The notes below the pieces were generated by a model that was not told where the DNA came from, did no database searches, and saw nothing but the letters and a program-made list of their open reading frames with translations. Shown piece by piece: positions 2,486 to 63,082 of a DNA stretch of 64,000 nt (the stretch's first letter is position 1; every line of letters starts with the position of its first letter). The translations under genes and the position numbers were made by a program. This DNA comes from a virus. The stretch lies in IMG/VR virus record IMGVR_UViG_3300042261_001186, positions 1 through 64,000 of that record; one strand, 5' to 3'.

Positions 2486-2941
2486 ATGGGAGTGAAGAAG
2501 TATTTGAGTTTTTTGAATGAAGAAGTATCAGAAGAAGTTCTTAAATTTAGGAGAGCTATGGGTGATTATGGAGATGATGAAATAGAATTCAAAGATTCTA
2601 GGAAATTCCAGGAAAATGGAAATCCATTTCAAGATGATGGTGATGATGATGAAGATTATGATAATTGGGACACTTTCAAAAGAGAAAAAATATTTTATTT
2701 ATTTCATGCAACAGAACAAAACCTCCTTCCAACTATAATAAGAAATGGGTTGATTGGGAGGATTTATTTAACAGATAATCCAGAAACAGCTCTAGAAAAA
2801 CACCCTGTTTTGTTAAGAATAGAAGTAAATAATTTGGGTTTGACTAAAGAAGGGGATTATTATATTGCTAACAACATAGCCCCTAATAGAATAGAAGTCA
2901 TAGGTAGTATGCAAGAATTTATAAATTATTATTCTAATTAA
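2486..2941 (+). CDS. Capsid-targeted protein with ART-fold (Tpt1/KptA NAD-binding-like) domain
   Basis: Leader KKYLSFLNE; LFHAT..LPTIIRNGL..IYLT..A..VLLRI..IAP pattern; paralog of 3305..3667. Confidence 0.55.
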   Translation: MGVKKYLSFLNEEVSEEVLKFRRAMGDYGDDEIEFKDSRKFQENGNPFQDDGDDDEDYDNWDTFKREKIFYLFHATEQNLLPTIIRNGLIGRIYLTDNPETALEKHPVLLRIEVNNLGLTKEGDYYIANNIAPNRIEVIGSMQEFINYYSN

Positions 2942-3228
2942 CCGTATGTATCTATTTCTTTAATAACTTGATCTATTTTTTTACCCAAATCAAAAGGTAA
3001 CATAGCTTGACTCCTACAAGCTTCCAACAAAGATTTCATTTGCATAGATACTTTCAAAAGAGCTGCAATGTCTCTTTCCATAGTCATATCTATTTTTTTG
3101 TTTTTAGTATATTGATCTAATTCATTTTTAAGTTTTTGATTTTCTAATCTTAAAAATTCTAATTCATAATTAGAACCTGTTGGCCCAGACCATACACTAT
3201 CATTGAAAGATGTATTTTTTTTCCTCAT
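2938..3228 (-). CDS. Hypothetical coiled-coil protein
   Basis: 96-aa ORF with heptad LRLENQKLKNEL; fills the gap between two + genes. Confidence 0.6.
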   Translation of the reverse strand: MRKKNTSFNDSVWSGPTGSNYELEFLRLENQKLKNELDQYTKNKKIDMTMERDIAALLKVSMQMKSLLEACRSQAMLPFDLGKKIDQVIKEIDTYG

Positions 3229-3304
3229 ATAGACTTTTTATTTTATATAACAAAAAAACAAGTTTTTGTTTTTAATATATATATTAAAACATACTAAAAT
3301 ATAA

Positions 3305-3667
3305 ATGATTAGAAATTATCTTAAATTTATGAATGAAGCAAATGATATAGAAGATGATGATTCTGTATTAGATGGTTCAGAACCAGATTCTTTTTATACT
3401 GATTGGGGTAAATGGAGAGATGGTAAAGGTTTTGAAAAAACAAATCCTAATGAATTTCTCTATCATTCAATAGAAGATGATTATTATGATGGTGTTATGA
3501 AAGATGGTTTAATAGGTAAAATATATTTAACAGAAACTCCACAAGAATCTGCTCAACATCATCCAATTGTTTTGAAAATTAATGTAAAAGGATTAAGATT
3601 AAGAAAAGATGGTAATCATTGGACATTTTATGGTAAAATACCAGTTTCAAAATTAGAAGAGATATAA
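3305..3667 (+). CDS. Capsid-targeted protein with ART-fold (Tpt1/KptA-like) domain
   Basis: Leader MIRNYLKFMNE; LYHSI..VMKDGLIGKIYLT..PIVLKI..GNHW..KIP; TAATATATA upstream. Confidence 0.55.
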   Translation: MIRNYLKFMNEANDIEDDDSVLDGSEPDSFYTDWGKWRDGKGFEKTNPNEFLYHSIEDDYYDGVMKDGLIGKIYLTETPQESAQHHPIVLKINVKGLRLRKDGNHWTFYGKIPVSKLEEI

Positions 3668-3681
3668 AATAATTAAAAATT

Positions 3682-4227
3682 ATGATAAAAGATAAAGAAA
3701 AAATACTTATACAAACATTATATAATTTCTATAAGGTAGAAGAACCTAAGAAAAAAGAAATATTATGGCCATCAAGTTTGTCCCCAGTTGAATTTACAGA
3801 TGGTGATCCAGTTATGTATGATGATCAAGATGGTAAAAAAAGAGCTGGTATATATAAAGGTTTTAGAAAAGAAGATGGTAAGTATAAAATTCAATTTGTT
3901 GATAATGGTGGGATAAGATATTGTTCTAGAAATAGAGTAAAAAAAATAGAAACAAAAGAAGAACCTAAAATAACTAAACAAGAATTAGATAAAATTCAAA
4001 AATTAATTAGAATTCTTAATCAAATGGTTGCAGATGGTGATTTATCACAAGAAGCTGTAGATGTTTTTGTTAAAGATTTAGAGATAGAGAAAAAACATAA
4101 ATTACTTGATCCTTATAATGAAGAAAATTGGGATGAAGATGTTCAAATAATAAAGAAAACACCTATTCAACAACCTGGTATTACATGGAAACCAGCAGAA
4201 GATAGACCTGCCTATAGAGGCTGTTAA
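3682..4227 (+). CDS. Hypothetical protein with SH3/Tudor-like beta domain and DPxxEExW tag
   Basis: FTDGDPVMY..G.Y..YKIQF; LLDPYNEENW. Confidence 0.65.
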   Translation: MIKDKEKILIQTLYNFYKVEEPKKKEILWPSSLSPVEFTDGDPVMYDDQDGKKRAGIYKGFRKEDGKYKIQFVDNGGIRYCSRNRVKKIETKEEPKITKQELDKIQKLIRILNQMVADGDLSQEAVDVFVKDLEIEKKHKLLDPYNEENWDEDVQIIKKTPIQQPGITWKPAEDRPAYRGC

Positions 4228-4237
4228 AACTAAAATT

Positions 4238-5104
4238 ATGATATTACATAACAAAGAAGTATTCCCAAAGACAATATATTGTCTTACAGATGGCATTGCC
4301 GAAGAAGTAAAAAGACCTTTTTTCAATATACAAATTAAACTAAATGGTTGTAATGCAAATTGTGAATTTTGTATTAGTAAAACTGGTAAGAAATTCAATG
4401 AAGACCTATTTTTTGATAAACTGACTGAGATAAGAGAAAAGGCTTTCATTAAAAGACTTAATATAACTGGTGGTGAACCAACAATCAATTTTGAATTATA
4501 TAACAGAATAGTTAGAAAATTAAGAGAATTATTACCTGAAACATTCATAGTCCTTAATACTAATGGATATAATTTTGAAAAAGTATTTGAATCTGATTCA
4601 CATAAATACCTTAATAATATTCAATTAAGTAGACATCATTATATTGATGAAATCAATAATAAAATATTAGGATTCAAATCTGTACCAAGAGAACTTATTA
4701 AGAAAATTAATGAAGATTTAGAACATAAATTTTTAAATTTATCATGTAATTTAATAAAAGGATACATTGATAAAGATGAAGAAGTTTATAAGTATTTAGA
4801 TGATGCTAGTGATTTAGATATAAGATGGGTTGGTTTTGTATCATTAATACCTTTGAATGATTTCTGTAAAGAAAATTATATAGATTTTGAGAGTTTAAAT
4901 CTTACAAATAAAAGATTAATTCTTATGCAAAGTCATTGTTTAAATGACACTTGTAAATGTGCAGATTACCTTTATGTACCTAATGATTTAAGTTTTCCAA
5001 TAAAAGTGTATAATAAAATTATTAAAAAATCAAATGTAAAACACATACTTGTGTTTGATGGTGAGAATTTCAATGTTGGTTTTGATGGTGAATTATTGGC
5101 TTAA
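4238..5104 (+). CDS. Radical SAM protein
   Basis: CNANCEFC (CX3CX2C), ITGGEPT, LNTNG. Confidence 0.93.
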   Translation: MILHNKEVFPKTIYCLTDGIAEEVKRPFFNIQIKLNGCNANCEFCISKTGKKFNEDLFFDKLTEIREKAFIKRLNITGGEPTINFELYNRIVRKLRELLPETFIVLNTNGYNFEKVFESDSHKYLNNIQLSRHHYIDEINNKILGFKSVPRELIKKINEDLEHKFLNLSCNLIKGYIDKDEEVYKYLDDASDLDIRWVGFVSLIPLNDFCKENYIDFESLNLTNKRLILMQSHCLNDTCKCADYLYVPNDLSFPIKVYNKIIKKSNVKHILVFDGENFNVGFDGELLA

Positions 5105-7560: not shown

Positions 7561-7589
7561 AAAAAAAGGAGAATTTATTCTCCTTTTTT
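7561..7589. terminator. Bidirectional intrinsic terminator
   Basis: A7-GGAGAAT-TT-ATTCTCC-T6 between convergent genes. Confidence 0.75.
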
Positions 7590-8366
7590 CTTTATGGGTT
7601 TCTTTTCACTATTTATAAACCACCAATTATCTCTATATGGATCTTCTGCTTTTTTTGGTTTAGGTCTGAGTTTGAATCTACCTTCTTCATTGAATACAAC
7701 ATTATGTATACCTGTTCTACCACCTACACGTTCAACACTACCATCTTGCTTATAGACAGGTCTACCACCAATTTGTTCTATTTCATCATATTCACTCCAA
7801 AATTGTGAAGTATCAAAATAGAATGGTTTAAATCCTTCAATTGTTTTATATTCTTGATAAATGAATTCTTTATCTATCAAAACATCTCTAAATTCATTTT
7901 TACTAAGTTCTGGAATTATATATCCTATTCCTTTACATAATTTGCAATTCCAAGTGTGTTTTTCTTTCTTCTGAGTTGGGTTGTTGCATTTTTTTCTTTT
8001 CCTTTCCTTTCCAAATATCTCTTTCAAGTAAACATATTCATATTTGTCAGCATCTTTATCTTCAGGTGAGAATACTAAATTTCCTTGATTTGGTAACCAG
8101 TATGAGTTTGCGTCCTTGTCTGTTTTTGTAGGATATTCTGCAAGATTGAATTGACAACCATTACCATTAGGATTTCTCTTGTCAAATTTTATACAATATG
8201 TGTATCCATAATATAAAGTCCTATTGAAAATCTCACCTGACCATATCGCACCACCATACATCCTTACAAAGACTTTATCACCTATGTCGTATTTTATGTC
8301 TTTATATGCATCATCTTCTACCTTTTTGATTGAAGCCTCATTTAAGAATTCTTGAAATTTTTTCAT
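7575..8366 (-). CDS. Putative internal head protein, WWF-tail family (Zn-binding module)
   Basis: Leader MKKFQEFLNE; YDIGDKV; CNNPTQKKEKHTWNCKLCKG; C-terminal DPYRDNWWFINSEKKP. Confidence 0.75.
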   Translation of the reverse strand: MKKFQEFLNEASIKKVEDDAYKDIKYDIGDKVFVRMYGGAIWSGEIFNRTLYYGYTYCIKFDKRNPNGNGCQFNLAEYPTKTDKDANSYWLPNQGNLVFSPEDKDADKYEYVYLKEIFGKERKRKKCNNPTQKKEKHTWNCKLCKGIGYIIPELSKNEFRDVLIDKEFIYQEYKTIEGFKPFYFDTSQFWSEYDEIEQIGGRPVYKQDGSVERVGGRTGIHNVVFNEEGRFKLRPKPKKAEDPYRDNWWFINSEKKPIKKKGE

Positions 8367-9079
8367 TTTTTTATCGGTTTTTTCTCACTATTTATGAACC
8401 ACCAATTTTCATCTCCTGGATCATCTTCTTTTTTTTCTTTTGTTCTAACTAATAATCTTCCATTAGATTTCCAAGTTCTAACATCACTAAAATCAAGTGT
8501 AAACCAATAATTATCAACATTGAACCAAACTGGTTTATCATTGAAATAATTTTCATAAGATTCTTGGTATTTTATTTCCTTATCTTTTAAAGGTTCTCTT
8601 ATTAGTCTAAATATTTCATCATAACCTCTCATACCTGATCCTTTACAATATCTACAATTCCAAGTATGATGTGCTTTTTTTTGAGTAGGATTATCACATT
8701 TTCTTACATATTTATCAAAATATTCTTTAAGATAAATAATAGACTCACTTTTAGATTTACCATCATCTATATCTAAAACATTATTTTCATCAGTCCAATA
8801 TGCTCTTCTATCAGGATCAGATTTTTTAGGAAATTCAGAATTATAATATTCACCAGAACCTGCGCCATAATAAAAAGGTTTATCTTTTTCAACATAAACT
8901 TTTATACAATACATCATATTATGTGGTTCAACAGCTCTATTGAAAATCTCTCCTTTGAAAGTATTTAAATCTCTTCTTACTCTAAATAAAACCTTATCCC
9001 CTATATTATACTTAAAATCTTTATATTTATCTTCTTTTGGGATATTTCCTTCAAAGATAAATTCATTGTATTTCTTCAT
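8363..9079 (-). CDS. Putative internal head protein, WWF-tail family (paralog of 7575..8366)
   Basis: Leader MKKYNEFIFE; YNIGDKV; CDNPTQKKAHHTWNCRYCKG; DPGDENWWFINSEKKP. Confidence 0.75.
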   Translation of the reverse strand: MKKYNEFIFEGNIPKEDKYKDFKYNIGDKVLFRVRRDLNTFKGEIFNRAVEPHNMMYCIKVYVEKDKPFYYGAGSGEYYNSEFPKKSDPDRRAYWTDENNVLDIDDGKSKSESIIYLKEYFDKYVRKCDNPTQKKAHHTWNCRYCKGSGMRGYDEIFRLIREPLKDKEIKYQESYENYFNDKPVWFNVDNYWFTLDFSDVRTWKSNGRLLVRTKEKKEDDPGDENWWFINSEKKPIKK

Positions 9080-9903
9080 TTCTTAACAGGTTTTTTTTCA
9101 CTATTGGTAAACCACCAATTTGCATCACTTGGATCTAAAGGTTTTGATTCTGGTTTTGGTGGTTTTGGTTTGGCTTTATAGAGTTTTAATCTATCTGTCC
9201 AATAAACTACTTCCAAATCACCAGATATTGAAATACCTTCATTGCGATCTACATAATTTTCGCTTTCTGAATCATCTTCCCAGTAAAAATCATCAAATTC
9301 ATATCTTGTTCTTACGATATCTTTAAACATATCTGATTTCATAGTACCAACCAGGGCGAGGGCAGTGTTATTACTTTGGACTGTAAATTCTTTACCTTTA
9401 AGAAGTTCTTTCAATTCCAAAAGAACTCGATCTACATAAACATTTCCACCTTTTGATTTGTGTTTTTTTACTATTTCACTCAAATAAATGTAATTATCTT
9501 CTTCTTTTTTTTCTTCAGGTTTCTTGTCTGTTTTTTTAACTTTCTTTGTTTCAACTTTACCAGTACTTGAGATATGAAATTCTTTTCTACCTTTTTCATC
9601 TTCCCAATCTTCTTCATCCTCTTGTAACCTCAAATTCCAAGCAGGAAACCACCAATCATTTACCAAATACAACCTTCCATTATAAGGACCATATTTTTTG
9701 AGTCCTTTGGCCCCCATATTGGTTAGTACTTCACCAATTTGTTTTGTACTACTAATATTGTCAACGACACCAACTTCATCATCATATTCATAATCATCTA
9801 CCATACCAGATACTATTACTCTATCTCCAACTTTGAAGACTGGTCTGAGTTTTTTTTCTGTTATTTCTGCTTCATTTAAAAAGGATGAAAAATTATATAC
9901 CAT
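9076..9903 (-). CDS. Putative internal head protein, WWF-tail family
   Basis: Leader YNFSSFLNE; FKVGDRV; DPSDANWWFTNSEKKP. Confidence 0.75.
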   Translation of the reverse strand: MVYNFSSFLNEAEITEKKLRPVFKVGDRVIVSGMVDDYEYDDEVGVVDNISSTKQIGEVLTNMGAKGLKKYGPYNGRLYLVNDWWFPAWNLRLQEDEEDWEDEKGRKEFHISSTGKVETKKVKKTDKKPEEKKEEDNYIYLSEIVKKHKSKGGNVYVDRVLLELKELLKGKEFTVQSNNTALALVGTMKSDMFKDIVRTRYEFDDFYWEDDSESENYVDRNEGISISGDLEVVYWTDRLKLYKAKPKPPKPESKPLDPSDANWWFTNSEKKPVKK

Positions 9904-10409: not shown

Positions 10410-10760
10410 TTAATTTGTATCCAAAATTCTCTAAATCTTTTCTGTGTTTTTGTCTCTGTTGTCATCTGGTAATATCATATCAAAATTAACATAAACCCAA
10501 TTAAACATTCTATTGTTTCCAGCAGGTATTGCTACAACTGTTCCACTACCATATAAAAAATCAAAAACTCTATCACCAACTTCAGGGGTTTCACCATAGT
10601 CTATTCTCTATATTCTGGCTGGTCTTTGGATAACTACACCTTCTGCTCTCCTGTTTGGTCCCCTACCCCTTTGTAATACTATATTTTCATCCCATACTTC
10701 TTCATCATATGGATCTATGTCACTATGAACATTTTCAAATTTTTTGAATTTTTTTATCAT
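10410..10760 (-). pseudogene. Leader- and tag-bearing gene interrupted by in-frame TAG (absent from ORF track)
   Basis: Manual translation MIKKFKKFENVHSDIDPYDEEVW...RPARI*RIDYGETPEVGDRVFDFLYGSGTVV...TEKI*RILDTN*; TAG at 10608-10610 and 10431-10433. Confidence 0.7.
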
Positions 10761-10761
10761 A

Positions 10762-11250
10762 TTAACCATTCCAATTTTCTTCACCTAAAGGATCTATTCT
10801 ATTGAAAACATTGGTGTCATTGGTTTTGGCCCATTCAGCATAACCTTTTAAGAAATCTATCAAGTCTTGCATTTTATCTAATGTTTCCTTTGAATAAGTA
10901 TCTATCTCTAAATATCTCATAACATCTTCATCTTCAAGATATCCTATGATTTTTGGATCTAATCCATAAAAAGCCAAGTCTTCAAAAGATAATTCTGCAT
11001 CAGTTGATTTGATATATTTCAAATGTGCTAATTCCCTTGCCAAATCAGATAATTTATTATAACCAGATTTATTAACAAAAGTTTGTTTAACTGCTCTTAG
11101 ATTACCTCTAACAAATATATCTTCTATGATCGAAACTATAGTTAAAACACCATTGAGGAATTTATTTTTACCTATTTTTCTCATTATACCAACAATTCTT
11201 CTTGTCATTGGGTTTTTAGCTTCATTGAATTTTTCAAATTTTGTTAACAT
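10762..11250 (-). CDS. Putative internal head protein with C-terminal DPLGEENW tag
   Basis: Leader MLTKFEKFNE; ends IDPLGEENWNG. Confidence 0.75.
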   Translation of the reverse strand: MLTKFEKFNEAKNPMTRRIVGIMRKIGKNKFLNGVLTIVSIIEDIFVRGNLRAVKQTFVNKSGYNKLSDLARELAHLKYIKSTDAELSFEDLAFYGLDPKIIGYLEDEDVMRYLEIDTYSKETLDKMQDLIDFLKGYAEWAKTNDTNVFNRIDPLGEENWNG

Positions 11251-11266: not shown

Positions 11267-11629
11267 TTATTTCCATTCGACATCATTGTCATAGTCTTCA
11301 TAATCCATATAATCGTCATACGGGAATTTACCATAACTTGTTCCAAAAAATTTATTTATGGTATCATATTCTTCTTTTGTTATATTCTTAACACCTATAG
11401 AGTCCAAAACTTCTTGACCATTTTCAAATTCAATGTCTTCATTTGATCCAAAACCAAAACTATATTGACCTTGATGTTGTTGAAATTTTTTCTGGAAAAT
11501 ATTCCATTCAGCATCTGTCATTATGCTAAATCCTTCAACATCAAATTCATCAGCATAATCAGCACTGAAATCCAGCAATACATAGCCGGATTCAGTGCCT
11601 TCATTCAAGAAACTTAAAATACTTTTCAT
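11267..11629 (-). CDS. Acidic putative internal head protein
   Basis: Leader MKSILSFLNE; directly downstream of gltX on the same strand. Confidence 0.7.
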   Translation of the reverse strand: MKSILSFLNEGTESGYVLLDFSADYADEFDVEGFSIMTDAEWNIFQKKFQQHQGQYSFGFGSNEDIEFENGQEVLDSIGVKNITKEEYDTINKFFGTSYGKFPYDDYMDYEDYDNDVEWK

Positions 11630-11630: not shown

Positions 11631-13226
11631 TTATTTTTTCTTCATTTTTATCTTATAATTGGTCATACGATCTAATGTACCTTCTTTACCTATAATTTCC
11701 ATTATATCAAATAATGAAGGACCATTACCCATACCTGTTAAAACCAATCTCAAAGCTGGAGCAACAGCACCAAAACTCTTACCACTAGCATTTACATAAC
11801 CTTCAAAAGCTTTTTGTATATCTTCTGAAATCCAATTATTAACACCTGCAAATATATCTTTCAAAGCAGCAACAATTTCAATACTTTCTTGATTCCATTT
11901 CTTCTCAACAGTTTTCTTATCATATTCTGTAGGTGGTTCAAATAAATATAATGAAGCATCATAAATATCTTTTACAAAATTTACTTTACCTTTATTCATA
12001 TCAACCATCTTTGCAATAGTTCTATCTGGAAGATTAATTCCTCTTTCTTTTAACATTGGTTTCAATTGATCAACTATTTGTTCACTTGGTATTTGTCTCA
12101 AGTATTGACCATTGTACCATTTAGCTTTATCAATATTGAATTTAGCACCAGCTTTACCACATCTTTCTAAAGAGAAAGATTGTGCTAATTCATCCATAGA
12201 CATAATTTCTTGTTCAGTACCTGGATTCCATCCGAGGAATGCCAAGAAATTAACAAATGCTTCTGGTAAATAACCTGAATCTTTATAACCACTTGAACTC
12301 TTTTCTGGAGTTTTAGGATCAGTCCATTTCAAAGGAAATACTGGGAATCCCATTTCATCACCATTTCTTTTTGACAATTTACCTTGTCCACCTGGGTTAA
12401 GTAAGAGTGCCAAGTGAGCAAATTCTGGAGCATCCCAGCCAAATGATTCATATAAATATATGTGAAGTGGAGCACTTGGAAGCCATTCTTCACCTCTAAT
12501 TACATGACTTGTTCTCATTAAATGGTCATCAACTATGTTAGCCAAGTGATAGGTTGGAAGACCATCTGACTTAAATAGAACCTTATCATCAAGTGTATTT
12601 GTGTTTGCTACAACTGGTCCTCTGATGATATCATTAACGGTTATTTGATAATCGGCTGGAAATTTTACCCTAACGACATAAGGGACTTTCTTAGCCATAA
12701 GTTCTTGAACTTCATCTTCTGAAAGAGTTAAAGAATTTTTCATTTTCATTCTTGTACTATGATCATATTGTGGTGATTGAACACCAGCTTGAAGTAAGTC
12801 AGATTTCATTTTTTCAATATCATCAGGTGTGTCAAAACAATAATATGCATGACCATTATCAATAAGTTGTTTAGCATACTTAGGATAAATATCATATCTT
12901 TCACTTTGACGATAAGGACCATAAGGACCACCTAACCAAGGGGCTTCTTCTGGTGATATACCACACCAATCCAATGATTTTCTGATATATTCTTCAGCAC
13001 CTGGAACAAATCTTTGTTGATCAGTATCTTCAATACGGAGATAGAATACTCCACCATGTTTCTTAGCAAAAAGATAATTGTATAGGGCAGTTCGCACCCC
13101 GCCAATATGGAGCGGACCCGTCGGGCTTGGAGCAAATCTGGTACGTACTTCCCCACTGACACTTTCTTTCATAAGACTGATAAATTTATCAAATTCTGTT
13201 ATGTTTTTCAAATTAAAATTTTTCAT
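11631..13226 (-). CDS. gltX: Glutamate--tRNA ligase (Bacteroidota-like) with N-terminal leader extension
   Basis: VRTRFAPSPTGPLHIGG (HIGH), RIEDTD, SHVIRGEEW, KLSKR, GFPVFPL.W insert; ~22-aa extension ending FISLMKES. Confidence 0.97.
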   Translation of the reverse strand: MKNFNLKNITEFDKFISLMKESVSGEVRTRFAPSPTGPLHIGGVRTALYNYLFAKKHGGVFYLRIEDTDQQRFVPGAEEYIRKSLDWCGISPEEAPWLGGPYGPYRQSERYDIYPKYAKQLIDNGHAYYCFDTPDDIEKMKSDLLQAGVQSPQYDHSTRMKMKNSLTLSEDEVQELMAKKVPYVVRVKFPADYQITVNDIIRGPVVANTNTLDDKVLFKSDGLPTYHLANIVDDHLMRTSHVIRGEEWLPSAPLHIYLYESFGWDAPEFAHLALLLNPGGQGKLSKRNGDEMGFPVFPLKWTDPKTPEKSSSGYKDSGYLPEAFVNFLAFLGWNPGTEQEIMSMDELAQSFSLERCGKAGAKFNIDKAKWYNGQYLRQIPSEQIVDQLKPMLKERGINLPDRTIAKMVDMNKGKVNFVKDIYDASLYLFEPPTEYDKKTVEKKWNQESIEIVAALKDIFAGVNNWISEDIQKAFEGYVNASGKSFGAVAPALRLVLTGMGNGPSLFDIMEIIGKEGTLDRMTNYKIKMKKK

Positions 13227-36587: not shown

Positions 36588-36740
36588 ATGAAATATTTAA
36601 AACTTTTTGAAGCTGATATTGAAGAAGATGAATATGAAGGTAATGTTGATATGAATAAACACATGTTGATACATGCCTTAGAAACATTGTTTCATTCTTG
36701 GGGTGGAGACACACCACCTGGAAAATTCTTAACAAAATAA
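36588..36740 (+). CDS. Small leader-bearing protein (50 aa, absent from ORF track)
   Basis: MKYLKLFEADIEEDEYEG...WGGDTPPGKFLTK*. Confidence 0.6.
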   Translation: MKYLKLFEADIEEDEYEGNVDMNKHMLIHALETLFHSWGGDTPPGKFLTK

Positions 36741-45554: not shown

Positions 45555-45871
45555 TAAAGAATTTTAAATTGTTTGAAAATAAACACAAAGACATAGACCC
45601 ATTTAGTGAAGAACAATGGGAGGATGCTGAAATTGAAATAGGTACTAACATATATTTGAAGAAAGATAGGAATTATTTTAATAGACACAAAAACAAATTG
45701 TATGGTACCGTTGTTGACATAGATGACAAAGGTATAGTCGAAATGGTCAACTATGTTTATATTGAAAATGGAAAAACTTTCACCAAGAAAAGAATAACAT
45801 GGAAAGTTTCAATGAAATATTTAAAGCACCATATAAGAACTATGGAATATACTTTATACGCTAATAATTAA
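45551..45871 (+). CDS. Putative internal head protein with N-terminal tag
   Basis: MIKNFKLFENKHKDIDPFSEEQW. Confidence 0.72.
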   Translation: MIKNFKLFENKHKDIDPFSEEQWEDAEIEIGTNIYLKKDRNYFNRHKNKLYGTVVDIDDKGIVEMVNYVYIENGKTFTKKRITWKVSMKYLKHHIRTMEYTLYANN

Positions 45872-53831: not shown

Positions 53832-55631
53832 TTAGATTAATACACCATGAGAATCTGTAACCTCAATAGCCATGAATTGTTTTTCTGGGAAGAAACCAAT
53901 ATCAGCTACTGCATATCTTGAACGGATAAGCATTCTTGGTGCCCATGTTGCTTCAGAAATCAATGAAATTGATTGTGCCATCAAATAAGGGATAAATAGA
54001 AGACCTGGTTGGTCAACACTATTTTTCCTACCTAAATAGATGTAGTTATCATCCCATCTCATATAAGGATCAACATAGATTGAAATTGCGCCTACATTAC
54101 CCATTGGGTAAAGTTGACCATTGGTACTCAATTTACCAGCATTAACTGGGTTGATTGTGTAACCAGCGATATCTTGAATAACAGATGCTAAGTTACCATT
54201 TGTTACCATGTATTGTGCTGGTCCAATTCTACCATCAGTTGCGATAAAGTTAGAAGCGTTATTGATTTTGGCAATAAGTTTTCTCTGGATTGAGTGAGTT
54301 GTTTCACCCATTGCTCCACCGTTTGCTGTTGTTGACAAAGCATCGATGTAGGTATCAACATTAAGGTCAAATTTTGAAATCAAACCTGTTGCGTCTTTAG
54401 GAGCCGTGTAAGAAACTCTGTTCTTCATAGCCAAAGTTCTGATTTTACCAACAATTTCCTTAGAAATTACTTGGGTCAATTCATTAATTAAAACACCTTC
54501 AAGTTTCTGAACAATGTCCATACCTGTTGCTGCTTTAATATCTTCAATTTGGGTTCTCTTCAATGTTGAAGAAATTTCAACATCACCAACTTGAATTGCC
54601 TTTGTGAAGACATCTGGACCAATTACACCAGGATAAGTTTTTTCATCTTGGTATCTTGTCATTCCACCACCTGGAGCTGTTGTATTTCCCCAACCATCTT
54701 CCATATTAGAAACCCAACCTGCTGAGAATCCAGGAATATGATCTTCAAGTAATGAAATCAATTCAACACCCCAGTTACCTGATGTAGTACCTGTTGTTGC
54801 ACCAGTCAAACATGTAAAACCACTAGCTGATAAATAAGCTGTGATAGAACCTGATTGTGGGAATGTGTTTAACATTTGATCCCAAGCTGAACCATCTTGT
54901 GGTGTCATTGAACCAACAGTGAAACCAGCTTGACGATAACATCTAAACATTGGGTAACCATCAACTCTTGAGAAACCTAAGAATTCTAACCAGTTTGCAT
55001 AACCTGCACCTGTTGTTGAAGATGGACCTGCACCTGAGAATAATGTGGTTGAAATACCACCTGCACCTAAGTGAACCCATGCTCTTTTTGATAAACCACC
55101 AACTCTTTCTTGAATATCCAAGATTACGAGTTCTGCTTGAATAGCTGCTTTTAAATTAGCATCTTCAGTTGTTGAACCAGTTGATTTTACTTTAAAAACC
55201 AATGGTCTTTGTTTAGGATCAGCATCACCGTGGAAATCACCACCACCTTGGTTGTAAGCATTGTCATATTTAAAATCTACAAACAATAATTCAATTCTTG
55301 GAGAAGCGGTTGGCTTTACAGCAACCAAATCCAAACCAATTGTTTGAGCTGCAATCTTCATTGCAACTGGGAGTAAATTCTGTGCAACGTCACCACTACC
55401 CATTGTGCCACCCCCTTGCCAAGTTGAACCTGGAATTGTGGAGATAACTGGAGCTTGTACATAACCAGCACCATTGCCATTCAATGTTGCATAACCAACA
55501 TTTTCATTCATTTGATGCATTTCTGCATACTCGGACATCCATGCTCTTTTTTCATCATCTTGAACTCTGAGAGCGTCAAGAATTGGAGCCCATTTTTTTA
55601 CTGCTTTCGCACTATCTACTATAAAATTCAT
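53832..55631 (-). CDS. Major capsid protein (T4 gp23-like)
   Basis: KKWAPIL N-terminus, IAAQTIGLDLVAVKP, QIEDIKA..G.D, VYVDPY-like IYVDPY, LFIPY, PRMLIRSRYA; downstream of the protease/scaffold gene. Confidence 0.92.
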   Translation of the reverse strand: MNFIVDSAKAVKKWAPILDALRVQDDEKRAWMSEYAEMHQMNENVGYATLNGNGAGYVQAPVISTIPGSTWQGGGTMGSGDVAQNLLPVAMKIAAQTIGLDLVAVKPTASPRIELLFVDFKYDNAYNQGGGDFHGDADPKQRPLVFKVKSTGSTTEDANLKAAIQAELVILDIQERVGGLSKRAWVHLGAGGISTTLFSGAGPSSTTGAGYANWLEFLGFSRVDGYPMFRCYRQAGFTVGSMTPQDGSAWDQMLNTFPQSGSITAYLSASGFTCLTGATTGTTSGNWGVELISLLEDHIPGFSAGWVSNMEDGWGNTTAPGGGMTRYQDEKTYPGVIGPDVFTKAIQVGDVEISSTLKRTQIEDIKAATGMDIVQKLEGVLINELTQVISKEIVGKIRTLAMKNRVSYTAPKDATGLISKFDLNVDTYIDALSTTANGGAMGETTHSIQRKLIAKINNASNFIATDGRIGPAQYMVTNGNLASVIQDIAGYTINPVNAGKLSTNGQLYPMGNVGAISIYVDPYMRWDDNYIYLGRKNSVDQPGLLFIPYLMAQSISLISEATWAPRMLIRSRYAVADIGFFPEKQFMAIEVTDSHGVLI

Positions 55632-55709
55632 TTTTTTAAGTTTTTTTTTTATTATATATTTGTTTTAAAAAGTCATTTTTTTCCAAAATGATTTTAATTC
55701 AAATTATAA

Positions 55710-58181
55710 TTATCTTTGATTTAATCTTTTCAAATATGCATCTACTTGAGAATCACTGAGTTTTGTGTTATCAAATCCGCTATAGCTTTCTTTTAGCAGA
55801 GTAACCTTACCCATATTTTTCTTAGCATATTCATGGAGGTTTCTGGAATTCCAGAAGCTTTCCATTTTGTCCTCAGTCAGGTTAGTATAAAATTGTGCAC
55901 TGCTTATAACACTACCTTGAACTTCTGGTTTTAAACTTTCCCAAATCGGTCTGAGATCGCTGGGGATATTGTCAATTAAGATTTCATTAAAGCTTCTGTT
56001 TTGAACAGTCAACGCTCTAGACATAATTTTCAAAACTTCATTTTCTGATGTGTAATACTTGCTTTCGTTCATTGCAGCTACTACTTTTTCTTTATCTTGT
56101 GGAGAAAGACTATAGAATGCAGTCTTTTTCTTTTCTGACAAGAAACTTAAAAAATGTGGGTCTTTATCATCTGAGGCTTCTCTTTTTTTAGTCTCATTGA
56201 TTTGCTTCAATATCATCCTCTTTAATGCGTTTTTAGATTCAAAAATCCTGTTACCAATTGGTGACAATCTTGATTCTTGAATTTCTTGTACTTCACCAGT
56301 ATCTGACAATTTTACAACTGCAATACCATTATCAGTATTCATAGCTAAAATTTCACCAGTCTTGTCATCATCAATTTTAACAACTTGACCTGGAGTCAAT
56401 TCTACACCATCAATATCATCTTCAATTTCTTCAGCGTTTACGCCATCAACATCAAAATCATCTAAATCATCTTGACCTTGTGCCTGACCTTGTCCTTGAA
56501 CTTGACCCTGACCTCGGATTGGTTGAGCTTGACCTTGACCTTGAATTTGTCCTTGTCCTTGGACTTGACCCTGACCTTGTGGTTGAATCAATCCTTGACC
56601 TTGAACTTGACCTTGGCCTTGTCCCATTTGTGCTTGTCCTTGTGAATCTTCATCATAATATTTAGATACATTATTTGTTTTGAAATCTCCCATTCTTTGT
56701 TCAGGTGATTCAATTGTTTCTCTGAGCATACCTAAACCTTTTGAGTTTAATTTTTCAGAAATGTATCTACCATATTCTATGTTTTTATCCAATGCTTCTG
56801 CGATGTAATTTTCATAAGCAATTGAATCTGTTAAATTTTCTGCGATATATTCAGCATATTTAATGCTATTATCTAATTGTTCACCAATGTATTCTGAATA
56901 TTTAATACTATTGTCAACATGTTCAGCAACATATTCTGAGTATTTGATATTATTATCAACATGTTCAGCAACATATTCTGCATAAGCAATGTTCTTTTCT
57001 ACATTTTCAGCAATGTATTCTGAATAAGCAATATTCTTATCAAGATTTTCAGCTACATATTGTGAATAATCAATTGATTTGTCTACATTTTCAGCAATGT
57101 ATTCTGAATATTTGATAGTATGATCAACGTTTTCAGCAATATATTCTGAAAAATCTATGGATTTATCCAATGTTTCAGCAATGTAATTTTGATAATCAAT
57201 TGATTTATCAACTGATTCAGCTACATATTCTGAATAACCAATGGCTTTTTCCAAGCTTTCAGCCAAATAATCATTGTATTGAATAAGTTTGTCTGTTTTG
57301 CTTTGAAGTTTTTCTTCTAATTTTTCGTTGGTTTTTTTGATTGTTTTGTTTTCTTGAACTAATACCTGCATTGTTTCTGCAAGATAATCAAGATAAGAGG
57401 TTATTTTCTTAAAGCCCTCATTGAAGGATTCGTACTTCTCGTATAAATTATTAAGTTTTTTAGGATCAAAATTACCACTCTTTACGGTTTGACTAATTTC
57501 TCTTTTTGTTTTGGTAATTTCTTCTGTTAAATAATTTGAGTACCTTTCCATTTGTTCTTTTGTTATAAATTCATTTTTATCCATATTAAACAAATCGTTT
57601 ATTTTTGACTCATCGGATATTTCGAATATCCTAAAGTTAGCACTCTCATTGAATCCCAAAGATTCATTTAAAGTGCGAATTTCCATCTTTGCTGAGCTAA
57701 ATCCAGGATCAGCAACAGCATCATAAGTAAATAATTTTTTAATGGTAACATGACCATTAGATTCAGTTACACCAGCAGCTCTAGATGATACAAAAATTGG
57801 AAATCCATCATCGACCAAAGCTTGAGCTTCTTTACCCCAATGAGTATTTAACAATCTTATTTCTCCATCAACCCTATTCTTTTCCTTAACAAAAAAAGCC
57901 TTCTCAACAACGTGTGACACTCTTGAGAGGCTTGTATCGAAAACATCTGGGTGATCGAATTCACCATAAACAACTCCTAATGTTTTTTTTCTTTCTAGTA
58001 ACTCATCCAAATGAGGCAAAAAACCAGCTGAATCATAAATTCGCTCATTGCGATTCTTAACACCAAATTCTGTAAATACACCGCCCAAGAGTATATTCTT
58101 CTTTCCATTATTGGCATTAACAGATTCATTTAATTTTTGTAACCCACTGGTAGAATTTTCAATGATTAAAACATTCTTCAT
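55710..58181 (-). CDS. Prohead protease (gp21-like) fused to scaffold/core region (gp22-like)
   Basis: KNRNERIY, GEFDHP, VSH, VSSRAAG, TYDAVADPGFSSA; followed by 14-aa repeats and a Q/G-rich linker. Confidence 0.92.
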   Translation of the reverse strand: MKNVLIIENSTSGLQKLNESVNANNGKKNILLGGVFTEFGVKNRNERIYDSAGFLPHLDELLERKKTLGVVYGEFDHPDVFDTSLSRVSHVVEKAFFVKEKNRVDGEIRLLNTHWGKEAQALVDDGFPIFVSSRAAGVTESNGHVTIKKLFTYDAVADPGFSSAKMEIRTLNESLGFNESANFRIFEISDESKINDLFNMDKNEFITKEQMERYSNYLTEEITKTKREISQTVKSGNFDPKKLNNLYEKYESFNEGFKKITSYLDYLAETMQVLVQENKTIKKTNEKLEEKLQSKTDKLIQYNDYLAESLEKAIGYSEYVAESVDKSIDYQNYIAETLDKSIDFSEYIAENVDHTIKYSEYIAENVDKSIDYSQYVAENLDKNIAYSEYIAENVEKNIAYAEYVAEHVDNNIKYSEYVAEHVDNSIKYSEYIGEQLDNSIKYAEYIAENLTDSIAYENYIAEALDKNIEYGRYISEKLNSKGLGMLRETIESPEQRMGDFKTNNVSKYYDEDSQGQAQMGQGQGQVQGQGLIQPQGQGQVQGQGQIQGQGQAQPIRGQGQVQGQGQAQGQDDLDDFDVDGVNAEEIEDDIDGVELTPGQVVKIDDDKTGEILAMNTDNGIAVVKLSDTGEVQEIQESRLSPIGNRIFESKNALKRMILKQINETKKREASDDKDPHFLSFLSEKKKTAFYSLSPQDKEKVVAAMNESKYYTSENEVLKIMSRALTVQNRSFNEILIDNIPSDLRPIWESLKPEVQGSVISSAQFYTNLTEDKMESFWNSRNLHEYAKKNMGKVTLLKESYSGFDNTKLSDSQVDAYLKRLNQR
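56754..57278 (-). repeat. 13 tandem 14-aa (42-bp) repeats YxEY[IV]AExxDxxI
   Basis: YSEYVAESVDKSID / YSEYIAENVDKSID / YAEYVAEHVDNNIK etc. Confidence 0.9.
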
Positions 58182-58281: not shown

Positions 58282-60099
58282 TTAAAATGTTGGGGCTTGA
58301 CCACCTCCTTGACCACCTTGTGGTGGTGCAGCACCTTGACCTCCTTGAGCTGGGGCTTGAGCACCTCCTTGAGCACCGCCCATTTGAGCACCACCACCCA
58401 TTTGAGCACCACCACCCATTTGAGCACCACCACCAAATTCTCCACCACCCATCTGAGCACCGCCACCGCCGAAGTCACCTCCACCGAAACCACCACCGCC
58501 GAAGTCACCTCCACCACCTGGCATTCCACCCATTTCACCACCTTCTGGACCAGCAGCATTACCTGCCCTCTTACGTTCAAGCATTTTATATTTGTTATTC
58601 TCTTCAATATCAGCATCACTGAATTTCATAATATGTCTGATAATCCATTCATTACTTAAATATGGTTTACCTTCAGGATCTTGAATTGAAGAACTTAATG
58701 TCTGTGCAATTTGAGCTCTCTCACTCAAATTCTTTAAATGTCTCCATTCTTCAAATAAAGTATCAGAAATAAAATCTAATCTTATTGCATCATTAAAATC
58801 AACATCATCTTTCAATTCTGGAAAATCTAAAATCATTTGAATTTTCAAAGGTTTCAAAATAATTTCTTTGAAAATAGTTCTTATTCTATTAATATAATTT
58901 TTAAATTTTACTTCATCTCTAGTAACAGCAGCATTTGAATCATAAGCATAAGTACCACCACCATTATCTTCATCAAATCTTTGGAATGGTAATTTACTAG
59001 CTCTTTTTAAAATTTTATAAAACCATTGAAGAACAATATCTTCATTCAAATTCACTTGGTTAGGTTGTAATATTTCAATTGATGGTGTACCACCATTACC
59101 TTCTGGGAACCAGAAATCTTTACTAAATGGAATATTTGTACTACCATTAATAGAAACGGTACCCATCCTATCATCCCATTGAACATCATCATGATATTCA
59201 CTCATCAATTCATAAATTTGTTGTTCAGCTTGTTGTCTAGATAAACCACCTACTGGTATAACAAATTTCTTGTAAATGGAAGCTTGATTAATATTATAAA
59301 GTAATCTAGCTTGTTCAATCATTTTTAATTGATTGTAAGGTCTGATCAAATTTTCAACATAAGATGTTTCTCCATATTCATTATTATTAGAATATGAAAT
59401 ATAAATAATCTGTGAATCTAATAATATTTTTCTCATCTGAGGATTATCTGGATGTTGAATCCAAATCATAGTATTAGTATTAGGATCAGTTGCAACAATT
59501 AAAGTAATTGGATCAAGAGGGGCTAAATCAATAATATTTTTTTGTTTGTCATCATAAATTATTTCATATGCAATATATCCATCAATTAAAAGATTTTTTA
59601 AATATTGCCATGCAATTTGACCTTCATTAAAATTAAATGTGTTTATGAGTTTTGTAAAATTTTCTTGATATTTTTGTCTTATTGTTTGTTCATAATTATC
59701 TGGTATATCTTTTACATAACAAAATCTATTATTGTCATCATATATAATACATTCATCTGCAATTTGTGTGATAAAATCTTTTATTTCATCTTTAATGGAA
59801 TATTGTCTTAATATTTTTCTTTTATCAAGATATGTTCTATCTAAATAAGCGATTGATTTTTTATCTAAAAATCTAGCAATAGTTTTTTTAGTAAATAAGT
59901 CATACATATTTGAACTATTAGGTTGATAAAGAACATCTGTTGTTTCTTCATGTACACCCATAGCATAAGCATTTCTAATTCTCATATCATTGTATTCCAA
60001 CCCACCAAACATTGTGGATAAACTTCGTAATATTTTGTTGAACAAACCAAAATTTGTGTTGTTAGTTTGGTTTCCTCCATATCTATTATATGATGCCAT
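58282..60099 (-). CDS. Portal protein (T4 gp20-like) with Gly-rich C-terminal tail
   Basis: IDG.IAYE, PYNQLKMIE, DFWFP..GG, I..L, SKLPF.RF, TRDEVKF..YI.R.R; position in the gp20-21-23 module. Confidence 0.93.
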   Translation of the reverse strand: MASYNRYGGNQTNNTNFGLFNKILRSLSTMFGGLEYNDMRIRNAYAMGVHEETTDVLYQPNSSNMYDLFTKKTIARFLDKKSIAYLDRTYLDKRKILRQYSIKDEIKDFITQIADECIIYDDNNRFCYVKDIPDNYEQTIRQKYQENFTKLINTFNFNEGQIAWQYLKNLLIDGYIAYEIIYDDKQKNIIDLAPLDPITLIVATDPNTNTMIWIQHPDNPQMRKILLDSQIIYISYSNNNEYGETSYVENLIRPYNQLKMIEQARLLYNINQASIYKKFVIPVGGLSRQQAEQQIYELMSEYHDDVQWDDRMGTVSINGSTNIPFSKDFWFPEGNGGTPSIEILQPNQVNLNEDIVLQWFYKILKRASKLPFQRFDEDNGGGTYAYDSNAAVTRDEVKFKNYINRIRTIFKEIILKPLKIQMILDFPELKDDVDFNDAIRLDFISDTLFEEWRHLKNLSERAQIAQTLSSSIQDPEGKPYLSNEWIIRHIMKFSDADIEENNKYKMLERKRAGNAAGPEGGEMGGMPGGGGDFGGGGFGGGDFGGGGAQMGGGEFGGGAQMGGGAQMGGGAQMGGAQGGAQAPAQGGQGAAPPQGGQGGGQAPTF

Positions 60100-60931: not shown

Positions 60932-61456
60932 TTAAAATACTTTTGTTAGATTATGTTCTTCGAAGTATTTTTCTGTCAAAACTACAAATTCTATCCCTCT
61001 TTTGTTACAATATTCTTTTGCTGCTTTCCATTTTGCCAAATTCCTCAAAAACATTTTCATCCTATATTCATAATTTTCTAATGCTTTCAAAGTATCTTTT
61101 TTTGGAGCAACTGGTGGTATGGTTTCATTATAAGGTTTTATTTCAATAGCTGTTTTTGAAATACTACCATCTGTTTTTTCTATTTCACAATATGCATCAG
61201 GGTGATATCTATGGGTTTCCCATTTACCATTTATTTGAATTTCATATGGTATGGTCATACCTTCAACATTCCATTTTAAAACTCTTGGTTCATTGTCCAA
61301 ATAAAAATACAATTTATATTCCCATGAGGATCTCCAATATATTACACTTGGATCACCTAAATATTTTGAAGGGTGAATAAGATGATATTCACCATGTTTA
61401 TATCTTTCAGTACCATCTGCTCTTTTAACACCATTTGGTTTTGCTCTATAACCCAT
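60932..61456 (-). CDS. Head completion nuclease (T4 gp4-like, TnsA-fold)
   Basis: KYLGDP..I.WRSSWE, IPY, HRYHPD, IEIKP, N.AKW.AA..YC, LTEK. Confidence 0.92.
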   Translation of the reverse strand: MGYRAKPNGVKRADGTERYKHGEYHLIHPSKYLGDPSVIYWRSSWEYKLYFYLDNEPRVLKWNVEGMTIPYEIQINGKWETHRYHPDAYCEIEKTDGSISKTAIEIKPYNETIPPVAPKKDTLKALENYEYRMKMFLRNLAKWKAAKEYCNKRGIEFVVLTEKYFEEHNLTKVF

Positions 61457-61984: not shown

Positions 61985-62123
61985 CTTTTTCTTTATCTTT
62001 TTTTATTAAATCAATAATATATTGTGTCATTGTAGTATAATTATCTTTTGATTTTTTAGAAATGTAATCATACAATTCTTTATGTATCCGAAAATTGAAT
62101 AATATTTTTTTATCTTTTAACAT
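61974..62123 (-). CDS. Small ribbon-helix-helix-like protein (49 aa, absent from ORF track)
   Basis: MLKDKKILFNFRIHKELYDYISKKSKDNYTTMTQYIIDLI; TAATATATA upstream. Confidence 0.6.
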   Translation of the reverse strand: MLKDKKILFNFRIHKELYDYISKKSKDNYTTMTQYIIDLIKKDKEKDEK

Positions 62124-62204
62124 TTTTCTTTATATTGTCTTTACATTATATATTAAATAAAAAAGGTCAAAAATTTCTATTTTGAAATAAATGACCTTTA
62201 TTTT

Positions 62205-62579
62205 TCAGTAATTGTGGAAGCCTTCACCATCATTCGATGAATCAAGACTCACTATTACAACTTTTTCTTGGTTAGCTTTCTTTTGATTGATTTCATTATA
62301 TCCAGCTGCCATACCTCTTTTAAATACTTCTGAAAAATAAGGTAATGCTAATCTGTATTTTTTCTCATTAAAATTGTACCATTTTTGGAACATGTAAAGG
62401 AGTCCAGTTTGAAGACAATCATTTTTGTCATCTGCTGTTTTGTACATATTGTTCTTTTTTCTGATCATGTTTTCACCTATTAAGACAAGCATTCTTTCTG
62501 CTTTTTTGGTCAAGGTTCCTTTACCTTTGGATAAAACAATTTCATAAAATAAATCGTCGTCGTTTAAATAATTGGCCAT
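62205..62579 (-). CDS. Late-transcription sigma factor (T4 gp55-like)
   Basis: YLNDDDL..EI, LIGE, Y..DDKNDC..G, F.E....ALPYFSE...R. Confidence 0.75.
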   Translation of the reverse strand: MANYLNDDDLFYEIVLSKGKGTLTKKAERMLVLIGENMIRKKNNMYKTADDKNDCLQTGLLYMFQKWYNFNEKKYRLALPYFSEVFKRGMAAGYNEINQKKANQEKVVIVSLDSSNDGEGFHNY

Positions 62580-62734
62580 TTCTTAAAAAATTTTTTTTTT
62601 TAATTTTTTTAATTAAATTTGTAACTTGGGGAGAAAATGCTCGAAATGCTTGTAGATGCTAGAATCTTCTTGAAATGGCCTTTATTGCTGTAGTTTGTAT
62701 TTAATCCTTATAGATAGTGGTCAATGAAAAGTTT

Positions 62735-62770
62735 AAAAAAAAATCCCATATAACCTATATGGGATTTTTT
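62735..62770. terminator. Intrinsic terminator
   Basis: A9-TCCCATATA-ACC-TATATGGGA-T6. Confidence 0.8.
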
Positions 62771-62785
62771 CAATTTTACAAATTA

Positions 62786-63082
62786 TTAAAATCTGATAGA
62801 ATCATCTCTGGTATATACACCATCAACATAAAAAAATATTTTTCTTAATTCATCAACATTATATATGTTTTCTATAATAATCAAAACATCTTCTTTAGTT
62901 GGAAGATGGTAATTATTTCTATCGTAAAAATAATATAAAATATCATTTAATTTTCCACGATCATCTTTATATAATTGTTTGATTTTATTGGATATTTCAG
63001 TTTTATATTTTTCTATACTCCAATTTAAAGGTTGATTACCAAAAAGTTCATTAAAGTCATTAAATTCAAATAATCTTTTCAT
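62786..63082 (-). CDS. Putative internal head protein
   Basis: Leader MKRLFEFNDFNE. Confidence 0.65.
   Translation of the reverse strand: MKRLFEFNDFNELFGNQPLNWSIEKYKTEISNKIKQLYKDDRGKLNDILYYFYDRNNYHLPTKEDVLIIIENIYNVDELRKIFFYVDGVYTRDDSIRF

Follow-up and report, generated by a model that had tools for sequence, protein, structure and literature searches.

Many genes of a huge Bacteroidota-type phage begin with a putative T4-style capsid-targeting leader that matches the repeat of a protease-fused scaffold-like extension

The closest described counterpart of the system reported here is the capsid-targeting sequence (CTS) of bacteriophage T4, the first 10 residues of which suffice for targeting (PMC9026906; this paper and the two others cited below are drawn on from part of their text). 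According to the same source, the main determinants of targeting are residues 4 and 7 and those of processing residues 8 and 10, an Asp at position 10 stops processing and not targeting, and the CTS is enough to keep foreign proteins in the head and to deliver them. It also describes that most T4 core proteins are cleaved and then leave the head, and that internal proteins of the T4 type are basic. The T4 proteins IPII and IPIII, translated from AF158101, both begin MKTYQEFIAE/A (here and below, a slash follows the last leader residue). The T4 scaffold protein gp22 begins MLKEQLIAE/A, which resembles the CTS, and contains many [LI]-A-E sites, and the protease inhibitor Inh begins MIDKDYIAE; tag and scaffold are thus alike in T4 too. 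In the giant phages SPN3US and phiKZ, head propeptides are cut at A-x-E or S/A/G-x-E, are mostly 80-130 residues long and have a small P3 residue, and in SPN3US eight of some 50 head proteins undergo cleavage (PMC5694885). Here we describe a leader of the T4 kind in 64,000 nucleotides (nt) of viral DNA (IMG/VR record IMGVR_UViG_3300042261_001186, positions 1 to 64,000; hereafter the window), which make up the first 64 kb of one contig of 130,397 bp. An earlier note on this DNA had proposed that about 30 genes share such a leader and that the proteins carrying it are packaged and injected with the DNA.

The leader was defined by a strict pattern, ^M.{0,7}[FY]..[FYM].{0,2}E, applied to the first 16 residues of each open reading frame (ORF), and by a relaxed pattern that allows any of F, Y, L, I, M and W at both hydrophobic positions; in a downstream-Met variant, a Met within the first 20 residues was accepted as the start. 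Strict matches were found in 16 of the 65 ORFs of the window (18 with a downstream Met), where 1.5 are expected from internal 16-residue windows, and in 36 of the 191 ORFs of the contig (40 with a downstream Met), where 4.7 are expected. The background rate on the contig was 796 of 32,307 internal windows (2.5%), internal Met residues gave 10 matches out of 685, and 1000 shuffles of residues 2-16 gave on average 7.0 matches (standard deviation 2.4, maximum 16) against the 36 observed. The relaxed pattern matched 26-30 of the 65 ORFs in the window, against 8.7 expected. One strict match, a protein of the T4 endonuclease V family (53312-53752), was discarded as a false positive because its Pfam domain begins at residue 1. 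We estimate that the window contains about 23 credible leader genes, 17 of them strict and about 6 probable. The earlier note, whose quoted N-termini all sit at called ORF starts, was thus right in its observation and modestly overcounted the genes.

The excess extends to the complete genome of a large relative, LR756501, in which 125 of 1036 crude ORFs carry a strict leader, where 19.3 are expected; 111 of these matches stand at the first start codon, and the leaders are spread along the genome. In Tenacibaculum phage PTm1, a cultured relative with a Bacteroidota host (224,680 bp, 29.7% G+C), no excess was found (4 of 315 ORFs match, 4.8 expected), so base composition and host translation signals are ruled out as the cause of the excess seen here. 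A 41-kb piece of another relative, LR756500 (462 kb), had one leader in 38 ORFs. The C-terminal tag RDxxIxxIL was absent from all 191 ORFs of the contig.

The leader has a close match inside one head protein of the same phage. The ORF at 55710..58181 (minus strand) encodes an 823-aa protein in which a predicted head maturation protease (residues 1-260; phrog_207, E 2.5e-28 over residues 1-255; weak match to Pfam Peptidase_S77) is fused to a long scaffold-like extension. The protease shares 24% identity with T4 gp21 over 156 aa (pairwise BLASTP, E 2e-7), with GEFDHP aligned to GELNHP of gp21 (His motif) and VSSRAAG to VSSRGLG (Ser motif), and its N-terminus, ...GLQKLNE19/S, is like LLIE9 of gp21. 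In the protein sequence, the extension shows about 13 tandem 14-residue repeats, Y-S-E-Y-[IV]-A-E-N-[VL]-D-K-S-I-x (residues ~296-480; 56742..57296, minus strand), which in the DNA have a period of 42 and 9.4 copies. The core of this repeat, Y-S-E-Y-I-A-E, nearly equals Y-Q-E-F-I-A-E, the core of the T4 CTS. The 7-residue form of the leader, [FY]..[FY][LIVMF].E, has 47 matches in the contig's 41,090 residues, namely 19 that are N-terminal, 2 that follow downstream-Met starts, 16 in the protease-scaffold protein and 10 elsewhere, and 16 of the 28 non-N-terminal matches therefore fall in this one protein. At background frequency, any one 14-residue unit would contain the motif by chance with a probability of the order of 0.003. 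The orthologues in LR756501 (13 copies), LR756502 (11), LR756504 (12) and LR745206 (11) retain the repeats, as do 11 of 12 IMG/VR loci; the twelfth (L011), where the protease ORF runs off the locus end, was left unscored. By sequence, the leader amounts to one copy of the unit that is repeated in the extension of the phage's own protease.

More distant relatives have other arrangements. PTm1 encodes a fused protein, named 'prohead core scaffolding protein and protease' in GenBank, with different repeats, and the repeats of LR756500 are degenerate. The Prevotella phage Lak-A1 (MK250016) is without Y-S-E-Y-I-A-E repeats and has a protease extension of acidic low complexity. Several Lak-A1 proteins near the head genes begin MNKxIKxL[LIM]E[SN]LFD[DE], a distinct recurrent leader that also ends in aliphatic-x-Glu. 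Repeats are also found outside the protease in LR756501, where a 207-aa mini-protein (619760-620383) has three copies of the scaffold repeat (YAEYLAEQID, YQEYIAEQLD and YSEYVAEHID) and a 1691-aa protein (21458-26533) has seven F-V-K-Y-[LI]-I-E repeats that lie ~58-61 residues apart.

Among the 40 ORFs of the contig with a leader, the predicted leader is 9-15 residues long and anchored to the start Met. Its two F/Y residues are three residues apart, the first of them falling between residues 4 and 7 in 36 of the 40, and the Glu follows one to three residues beyond the second aromatic. The pattern fixes this Glu as P1. In 36 of 40 leaders the P3 residue is one of L, F, I, M, V and Y, with L, F and I prevailing; N and F predominate at P2, and G, N, A, S, T and E at P1'. 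The resemblance to the T4 CTS asserted in the earlier note is borne out by matches at the four functionally mapped T4 positions (4, 7, 8 and 10). The codons at the conserved positions vary (TTT 39, TTC 14; TAT 19, TAC 8; GAA 32, GAG 8; several Leu codons), and F and Y interchange, which indicates selection on the peptide and not on the DNA. Recombination at the nucleotide level or a translation signal was rejected as the source of the pattern on the basis of this codon variety and the PTm1 control.

The proteins behind the leader are diverse. Without their leaders, the 40 proteins fall into 30 BLASTP clusters, 25 of which are singletons, and the 125 leader proteins of LR756501 form 106 clusters. 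These high cluster numbers, together with the existence of a glutamyl-tRNA synthetase (GluRS) with and without the leader, point to a modular tag. In 81 best-hit pairs between the contig and LR756501, the leader is present in both proteins of 6 pairs, only here in 5, only there in 7 and in neither in 63; where both have it, the pattern is kept with different residues. Membrane-like segments are depleted in leader proteins, at 0 of 40 compared with 18 of 151 other proteins on the contig and 6 of 125 compared with 142 of 911 in LR756501. Pfam and PHROG searches of the leader proteins gave no match to internal proteins, so that the putative cargo consists of no recognizable internal-protein homologues and the likeness lies in the tag alone. 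PHROGs named a single family among them, phrog_27815, of no known function, and ESM Atlas look-ups of two leader proteins (7578-8366 and 47377-48099) returned only matches below the bar.

The genomic setting is that of a T4-type head. In sequence terms, the contig is a piece of a huge, T4-related phage of the Bacteroidota type: its G+C content is 24-36% across the window (in 4-kb windows), its gene starts are A-rich and free of Shine-Dalgarno sequences, and its head-gene stretch (53832-58181) has 76% identity over the full length to LR756501 and LR756503 (735,411 bp, 'uncultured phage' records), with weaker matches to LR756502, LR756504 and LR745206 (634-642 kb). A 735-kb genome has been reported in PMC7162821, which places five genomes of more than 634 kb in the Mahaphage clade and predicts Bacteroidetes hosts for it. 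Pfam and PHROGs identify capsid protein, protease, portal and head closure genes on the minus strand, in agreement with the gp21 context invoked in the earlier note. The portal protein (58282..60099, minus strand) belongs to the T4 gp20 family (Pfam Portal_T4, E 7.9e-72), and the head closure protein (60932..61456, minus strand) has a TnsA-like fold (phrog_218 'head closure', E 6.9e-40; Pfam Tn7_TnsA-like_N).

The 599-aa major capsid protein (53832..55631, minus strand) is of the T4 gp23 family (Pfam Gp23, E 3.5e-26); it matches PDB gp23 chains with E ~6e-4 in an alignment that covers the C-terminal half only. Its residues 1-43 (55503-55631, minus strand) form a candidate propeptide that ends ...EYAEMHQMNE43/NVGYATLN. 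The block W-M-[SA]-E-Y-A-E-x-H-Q-[MI]-[NH]-E-N is conserved in the capsid proteins of four large relatives, and the PTm1 capsid protein has ...MLTINE/N at the corresponding place. By analogy with ...SFLTE65/AEIGGDHGYNATN of gp23, the capsid protein would be cleaved after E43. Aliphatic-x-Glu is thus common to the leaders, the scaffold repeats (I/V-A-E) and the conserved site of the capsid protein.

The leader genes are statistically linked to a motif that stands upstream of the head genes. The 8-mer AATATATA is 18-fold enriched at <=45 nt upstream of ORFs. In the promoter-like form AATATATA[AG], it is present 21 nt upstream of the capsid gene (55652..55660, minus strand), upstream of the protease (58201-58209), portal (60129-60137) and fibre (20067-20075) genes, and upstream of the operons that hold most leader genes, including the GluRS operon (13247-13255) and those behind 42732-42740 and 45886-45894. 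Because structural genes lie behind it, we regard it as a putative late motif. A second motif, TAnnTTTG, which presumably corresponds to the host-type Bacteroidota promoter consensus, lies upstream of RtcB and several small-gene arrays, and the GluRS and ClpC-like genes have both motifs upstream. When genes on one strand with gaps <45 nt were joined into crude transcription units, 24 of the 64 genes of the contig in units with AATATATA[AG] carried a leader, compared with none of 33 in units with only TAnnTTTG (Fisher p 9.7e-6) and 16 of 94 in units with neither. The numbers for LR756501 are 65 of 290, 10 of 108 and 50 of 638, respectively, a weaker effect in the same direction (odds ratio 2.8, p 0.0024). 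In its longer form, (TT)TAATATATA[AG], the phage-specific motif has two preferred distances to the ATG, ~5-7 nt and 18-23 nt.

Some of the proteins with leaders are recognizable enzymes. GluRS (11631..13226, minus strand) has a 22-residue N-terminal add-on, MKNFNLKNITEFDKFISLMKE/SVSG, that precedes the Pfam tRNA-synt_1c domain starting at residue 26. The LR756501 orthologue has a similar add-on and that of LR756504 has ...KKDYSDFLKE/S followed by a linker; the GluRS proteins of LR745206 and LR756502 have none and start directly at MNIVTRIAPSPTG, in the catalytic core. A RimK-like ATP-grasp protein (42747..44159, plus strand; Pfam RimK, E 9e-20; motif at 42732-42740) has the leader-like start MITKYSKYLKQNE/A and its enzyme domain at residues 293-464, and its LR756501 orthologue begins MMAKVHNYTAYFE/K. 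Both proteins had been named in the earlier note as tagged enzymes, and both keep that place. The note's PRTases fared unevenly: the weak PRTase-like protein at 48095..48802 (plus strand, 235 aa) does begin with a leader, MIKFFKYIQFILE/H, and the larger one at 45915..47384 (plus strand) has none at its N-terminus and only an internal MKKYGDFVNE/S at residue 245. ClpC, also on that list, is doubtful, as its N-terminus fits the relaxed pattern only and its orthologues are without a leader, and no ART-like protein was found at Pfam E values up to 0.5 among 22 proteins (20 with leaders and the neighbours at 14040 and 15333). No leader-type start is present on thymidine kinase, the DNA polymerase piece, RtcB, the radical SAM protein, the HAD proteins or the GIY-YIG endonuclease, nor on the capsid, portal and protease proteins.

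The remaining leader genes of the window are listed here by position. At the left end, on the plus strand, are MGVKKYLSFLNE/E (2486..2941, 151 aa), with a AATATATAG motif at 2457-2465, and MIRNYLKFMNE/A (3305..3667, 120 aa), whose LR756501 relative begins MRIKSCTDFINE/A. A minus-strand group starts with MKKFQEFLNE/A (7575..8366, 263 aa), which has F4, F7, L8 and E10 in the T4 register, and its paralogues MKKYNEFIFE/G (8363..9079, 238 aa) and MVYNFSSFLNE/A (9076..9903, 275 aa). It continues with a small gene (10608..10760) that probably starts at the Met of MIKKFKKFE/N, followed by HSDIDPYDEEVW, with MLTKFEKFNE/A (10762..11250, 162 aa), with the relaxed leader MKSILSFLNE/G (11267..11629, 120 aa), which matches phrog_27815 over residues 18-109, and, beyond GluRS, with MIKKFKKYIKE/N (13324..14040, 238 aa).

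Two further groups are on the plus strand. The first comprises the relaxed leader MKKLKTFE/S (33433..33957, 174 aa), with a promoter-like motif at 33420-33428; a gene with the likely start MITKFNKYEKIFE/S (34665..35009), the LR756501 orthologue of which begins MITKFNKYDKVFE/S; the relaxed leader MKNLKTMDEFINE/G (35020..35394, 124 aa); a gene with the likely start MIKNYKNFIGE/S (35415..36584); and the relaxed leader MKYLKLFE/A (36588..36740, 50 aa). The second, next to the RimK-like gene, holds MITKYEEFINE/N (44168..44635, 155 aa), three genes that begin with MIKNFKLFE, namely MIKNFKLFE/E (44645..45031, 128 aa), MIKNFKLFE/T followed by HKDVDPLGEEKW (45015..45554, 179 aa) and MIKNFKLFE/N followed by KHKDIDPFSEEQW (45551..45871, 106 aa), and MIKNFQSYNE/S (47377..48102, 241 aa), a neighbour of the PRTase-like gene at 48095. 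A last leader, MKRLFEFNDFNE/L, is found near the right end (62786..63082, minus strand, 98 aa).

Additional sequence features accompany some leaders. A second motif, D-x-D-P-[YFL]-x-E-E-x-W, stands within ~6 residues of the leader in the genes at 45015-45554, 45551-45871 and 10608-10760, and it also follows the leader at contig positions 73904, 91673, 92289, 96534 and 124221. The same motif, in the form DP[FY]GEE[ND]W, closes many small proteins at 102-107 kb of the contig, and it fits hydrophobic-x-Glu too. Complete in-frame leaders also occur within longer ORFs, namely MKKYGDFVNE/S at residue 245 of 45915-47384 and, elsewhere on the contig, VIKNYTTFINE/G at residue 176 of 81151-81861 and VVKNFRDYLNE/S at residue 93 of 123260-123838. 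These may reflect fusions of genes in which a cleavage site has been retained internally, or else starts within the ORF. Between 99278 and 106064, the contig has tandem arrays of ~90-aa genes that each end Y-[KD]-E-E-[DN]-I-E-W-[LV]. In these arrays the stop codon overlaps the next ATG and GAGGAGG, which is Shine-Dalgarno-like, lies within the K-E-E codons, and the C-terminal 'tag' may therefore be a shadow of translational coupling, which would be unusual for a Bacteroidota-type phage.

Among other products identified with Pfam and PHROGs are GluRS, the RimK-like ATP-grasp protein, a ClpB/C-like ATPase, thymidine kinase and a radical SAM protein, as well as RtcB, a piece of DNA polymerase B, endonuclease V, HAD proteins and a GIY-YIG endonuclease. 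A 3717-aa ORF (20096-31249) encodes a fibre protein with collagen triple-helix repeats (Pfam E 1.4e-133) and PHROG tail-fibre matches, and has the promoter-like motif 21 nt upstream. The DNA polymerase B gene looks split or interrupted: its 503-aa ORF (region 37621-41566) covers the exonuclease domain and, of the polymerase domain, no more than the beginning, and is followed on the opposite strand by RtcB and the GIY-YIG endonuclease. A 291-aa protein (41681-42556) consists only of a class II aminoacyl-tRNA synthetase core (Pfam tRNA-synt_2, E 2.3e-13; phrog_29758).

Taken together, the data argue with reasonable confidence that the shared N-terminus is a capsid-targeting propeptide of the T4 kind and represents one copy of the repeat of the scaffold-like extension. 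The leader (aromatic, x, x, aromatic, aliphatic, x, Glu) would form a short amphipathic helix by which, late in infection, tagged proteins would join the scaffold core of the prohead. A protease of the gp21 type would then cut after Glu in the tags, in every scaffold repeat and in the capsid propeptide, upon which the scaffold peptides would leave, the cargo would stay inside with the DNA, and it would eventually enter the host. A bolder version, which we put forward as a possibility that is somewhat doubtful in its entirety, holds that megaphage particles carry at least 100 leader-addressed soluble proteins, including GluRS and the ATP-grasp ligase, and deliver them with the DNA, that the cargo address is one scaffold repeat, and that the CTS of T4 is what remains of such a repeat. 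If the address is one scaffold repeat, the cargo would co-assemble with the scaffold and be freed by the same cuts that dismantle it.

Several observations weigh against a targeting propeptide and its use for cargo. The tagged share of the genes is very large (21% of ORFs here, 12% in LR756501), the role of a tRNA synthetase inside a virion is not obvious, and mature leader proteins are mildly acidic (median pI 5.3 compared with 6.2 for the rest). The 16 matches in the scaffold-like extension represent one amplified repeat and not 16 independent events. The extension has no sequence similarity to T4 gp22 (E 12), and its proposed scaffold role is an analogy drawn from its fusion to the protease, from repeats that look like coiled coils and from the name given to the PTm1 homologue in GenBank. 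The capsid N-terminus AKAVKKWAPILD resembles AELLNKWKPLLE of gp23 weakly (E 0.039). As to the upstream motif, the genes behind it are the sole basis for calling it late, 16 of the 40 leader genes (40%) lie in units with neither motif, and in LR756501 10 of 108 genes in units with only the host-type motif carry a leader. Finally, everything proposed here is read from the sequences of this phage and its relatives. A complex prediction with the repeats (residues 290-485) and the first 45 residues of the 7575 protein, made without controls, scored 0.00 and speaks neither for nor against binding.

The same evidence, including the scaffold-repeat motif, the protease-type site and the shared promoter-like motif, can also be accommodated if the tag is read by scaffold and protease and the tagged proteins are no cargo. 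They would then be auxiliary core or assembly factors for a very large capsid, or enzymes that are inactive until clipped late and are then degraded or expelled. The departure of most cleaved T4 core proteins from the head (PMC9026906) and the acidity of the tagged proteins, unlike basic DNA-associated internal proteins, speak for this explanation. However, unrelated and fast-changing proteins that number over 100 and include GluRS and an ATP-grasp ligase make improbable structural helpers, and the T4 CTS sufficed to retain and deliver foreign proteins in the work covered by the same source. We therefore regard it as unlikely, albeit deserving of attention.

Alternatively, the helix might address another partner, as a degron or adaptor tag for a Clp-type unfoldase or as a docking helix for some other late assembly. 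The contig does encode a ClpB/C-like ATPase, and the DPxGEExW motif that follows several leaders and ends many small proteins suggests more than one tag system. Such a partner would nonetheless leave unexplained the identity of the tag with the unit repeated in the head protease's extension and the aliphatic-x-Glu that it shares with the conserved capsid site, and we consider this quite improbable. It is more improbable still that the shared start was merely inherited, with a few expanded families having swapped their 5' ends by recombination and the start having no targeting function. Tandem paralogues do exist (7575/8363/9076 and 44645/45015/45551), and the DNA of the three MIKNFKLFE leaders is almost identical; yet 40 proteins in 30 clusters (125 in 106 in LR756501), varying synonymous codons, orthologues that keep the pattern with changed residues and an add-on on a GluRS of the cellular type do not fit mere inheritance. 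A by-product of A+T-rich codons and Bacteroidota translation-start preferences can be dismissed as a highly implausible origin: K, N, I, F, Y and E are indeed the commonest residues at 27% G+C and many proteins start MKK or MIK, but the pattern occurs in only 2.5% of internal windows and at 1.5% of internal Met residues, shuffles yield a mean of 7.0 matches against 36, PTm1, alike in host phylum and G+C, shows no excess (4 matches in 315 ORFs, 4.8 expected), and none of the 33 genes in units with only the host-type motif has a leader.

If the capsid-targeting reading, with delivery of the cargo, is true, the largest known phages would enter the cell not with DNA and a few proteins alone but with ready-made, fast-evolving enzymes and effectors of unknown kinds, which would change the study of early takeover and counter-defence by megaphages. 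With the tag as a simple sequence criterion, candidate virion cargo could be catalogued from the metagenomes of uncultured phages, and the identity of the tag with the scaffold repeat suggests a testable mechanism and origin for targeting sequences of the T4 type. For phage-based delivery in the laboratory, there would also be practical interest in a short tag with which arbitrary proteins can be loaded into a very large capsid.

What appears to be new, on present sequence evidence, is a T4-style targeting and cleavage tag that is identical to a scaffold repeat and stands on an unusually large share of the genes. In the literature searched, no paper was found in which 'capsid targeting sequence' and 'huge phages' occur together, and none of the listed papers since 2019 that contain 'capsid targeting sequence' concerns such an expansion, as judged from titles and the beginnings of abstracts. 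A 'works like' comparison can be made with the cargo-loading peptides of encapsulins, short terminal peptides that load unrelated enzymes into a shell of the HK97 fold; these are usually C-terminal, bind the shell protein and remain uncleaved, and they act without scaffold or protease. Closer are phiKZ, 201phi2-1 and SPN3US, which have a protease of the gp21-related type with Glu sites and in which many head-internal proteins are processed, and the parts of PMC5694885 drawn on here also describe giant-phage paralogues that share identical N-terminal stretches while the remainder diverges. Compared with these phages, the system described here has a tag of only ~10 residues, an aliphatic or aromatic P3, far more tagged genes and a head module of the T4 type.

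The closest likeness is to the CTS of T4 IPI, IPII, IPIII and Alt, which is removed by gp21. Both are N-terminal tags of ~10 residues with aromatics at positions 4 and 7, an aliphatic residue at 8 and Glu at 10, both occur in phages with a gp21-type protease, a gp20 portal and a gp23 capsid protein, and both are found on otherwise unrelated, fast-changing proteins. The differences concern scale and design. T4 tags a handful of genes, compared with ~40 on the 130 kb analyzed here and ~125 in the 735-kb relative. In T4, gp21 and gp22 are separate proteins, whereas the tag here is the repeat unit of a scaffold-like extension that is fused to the protease. The spacing within the tag is variable here, and the putative cargo, in a system known from its genes alone, is acidic and includes enzymes.

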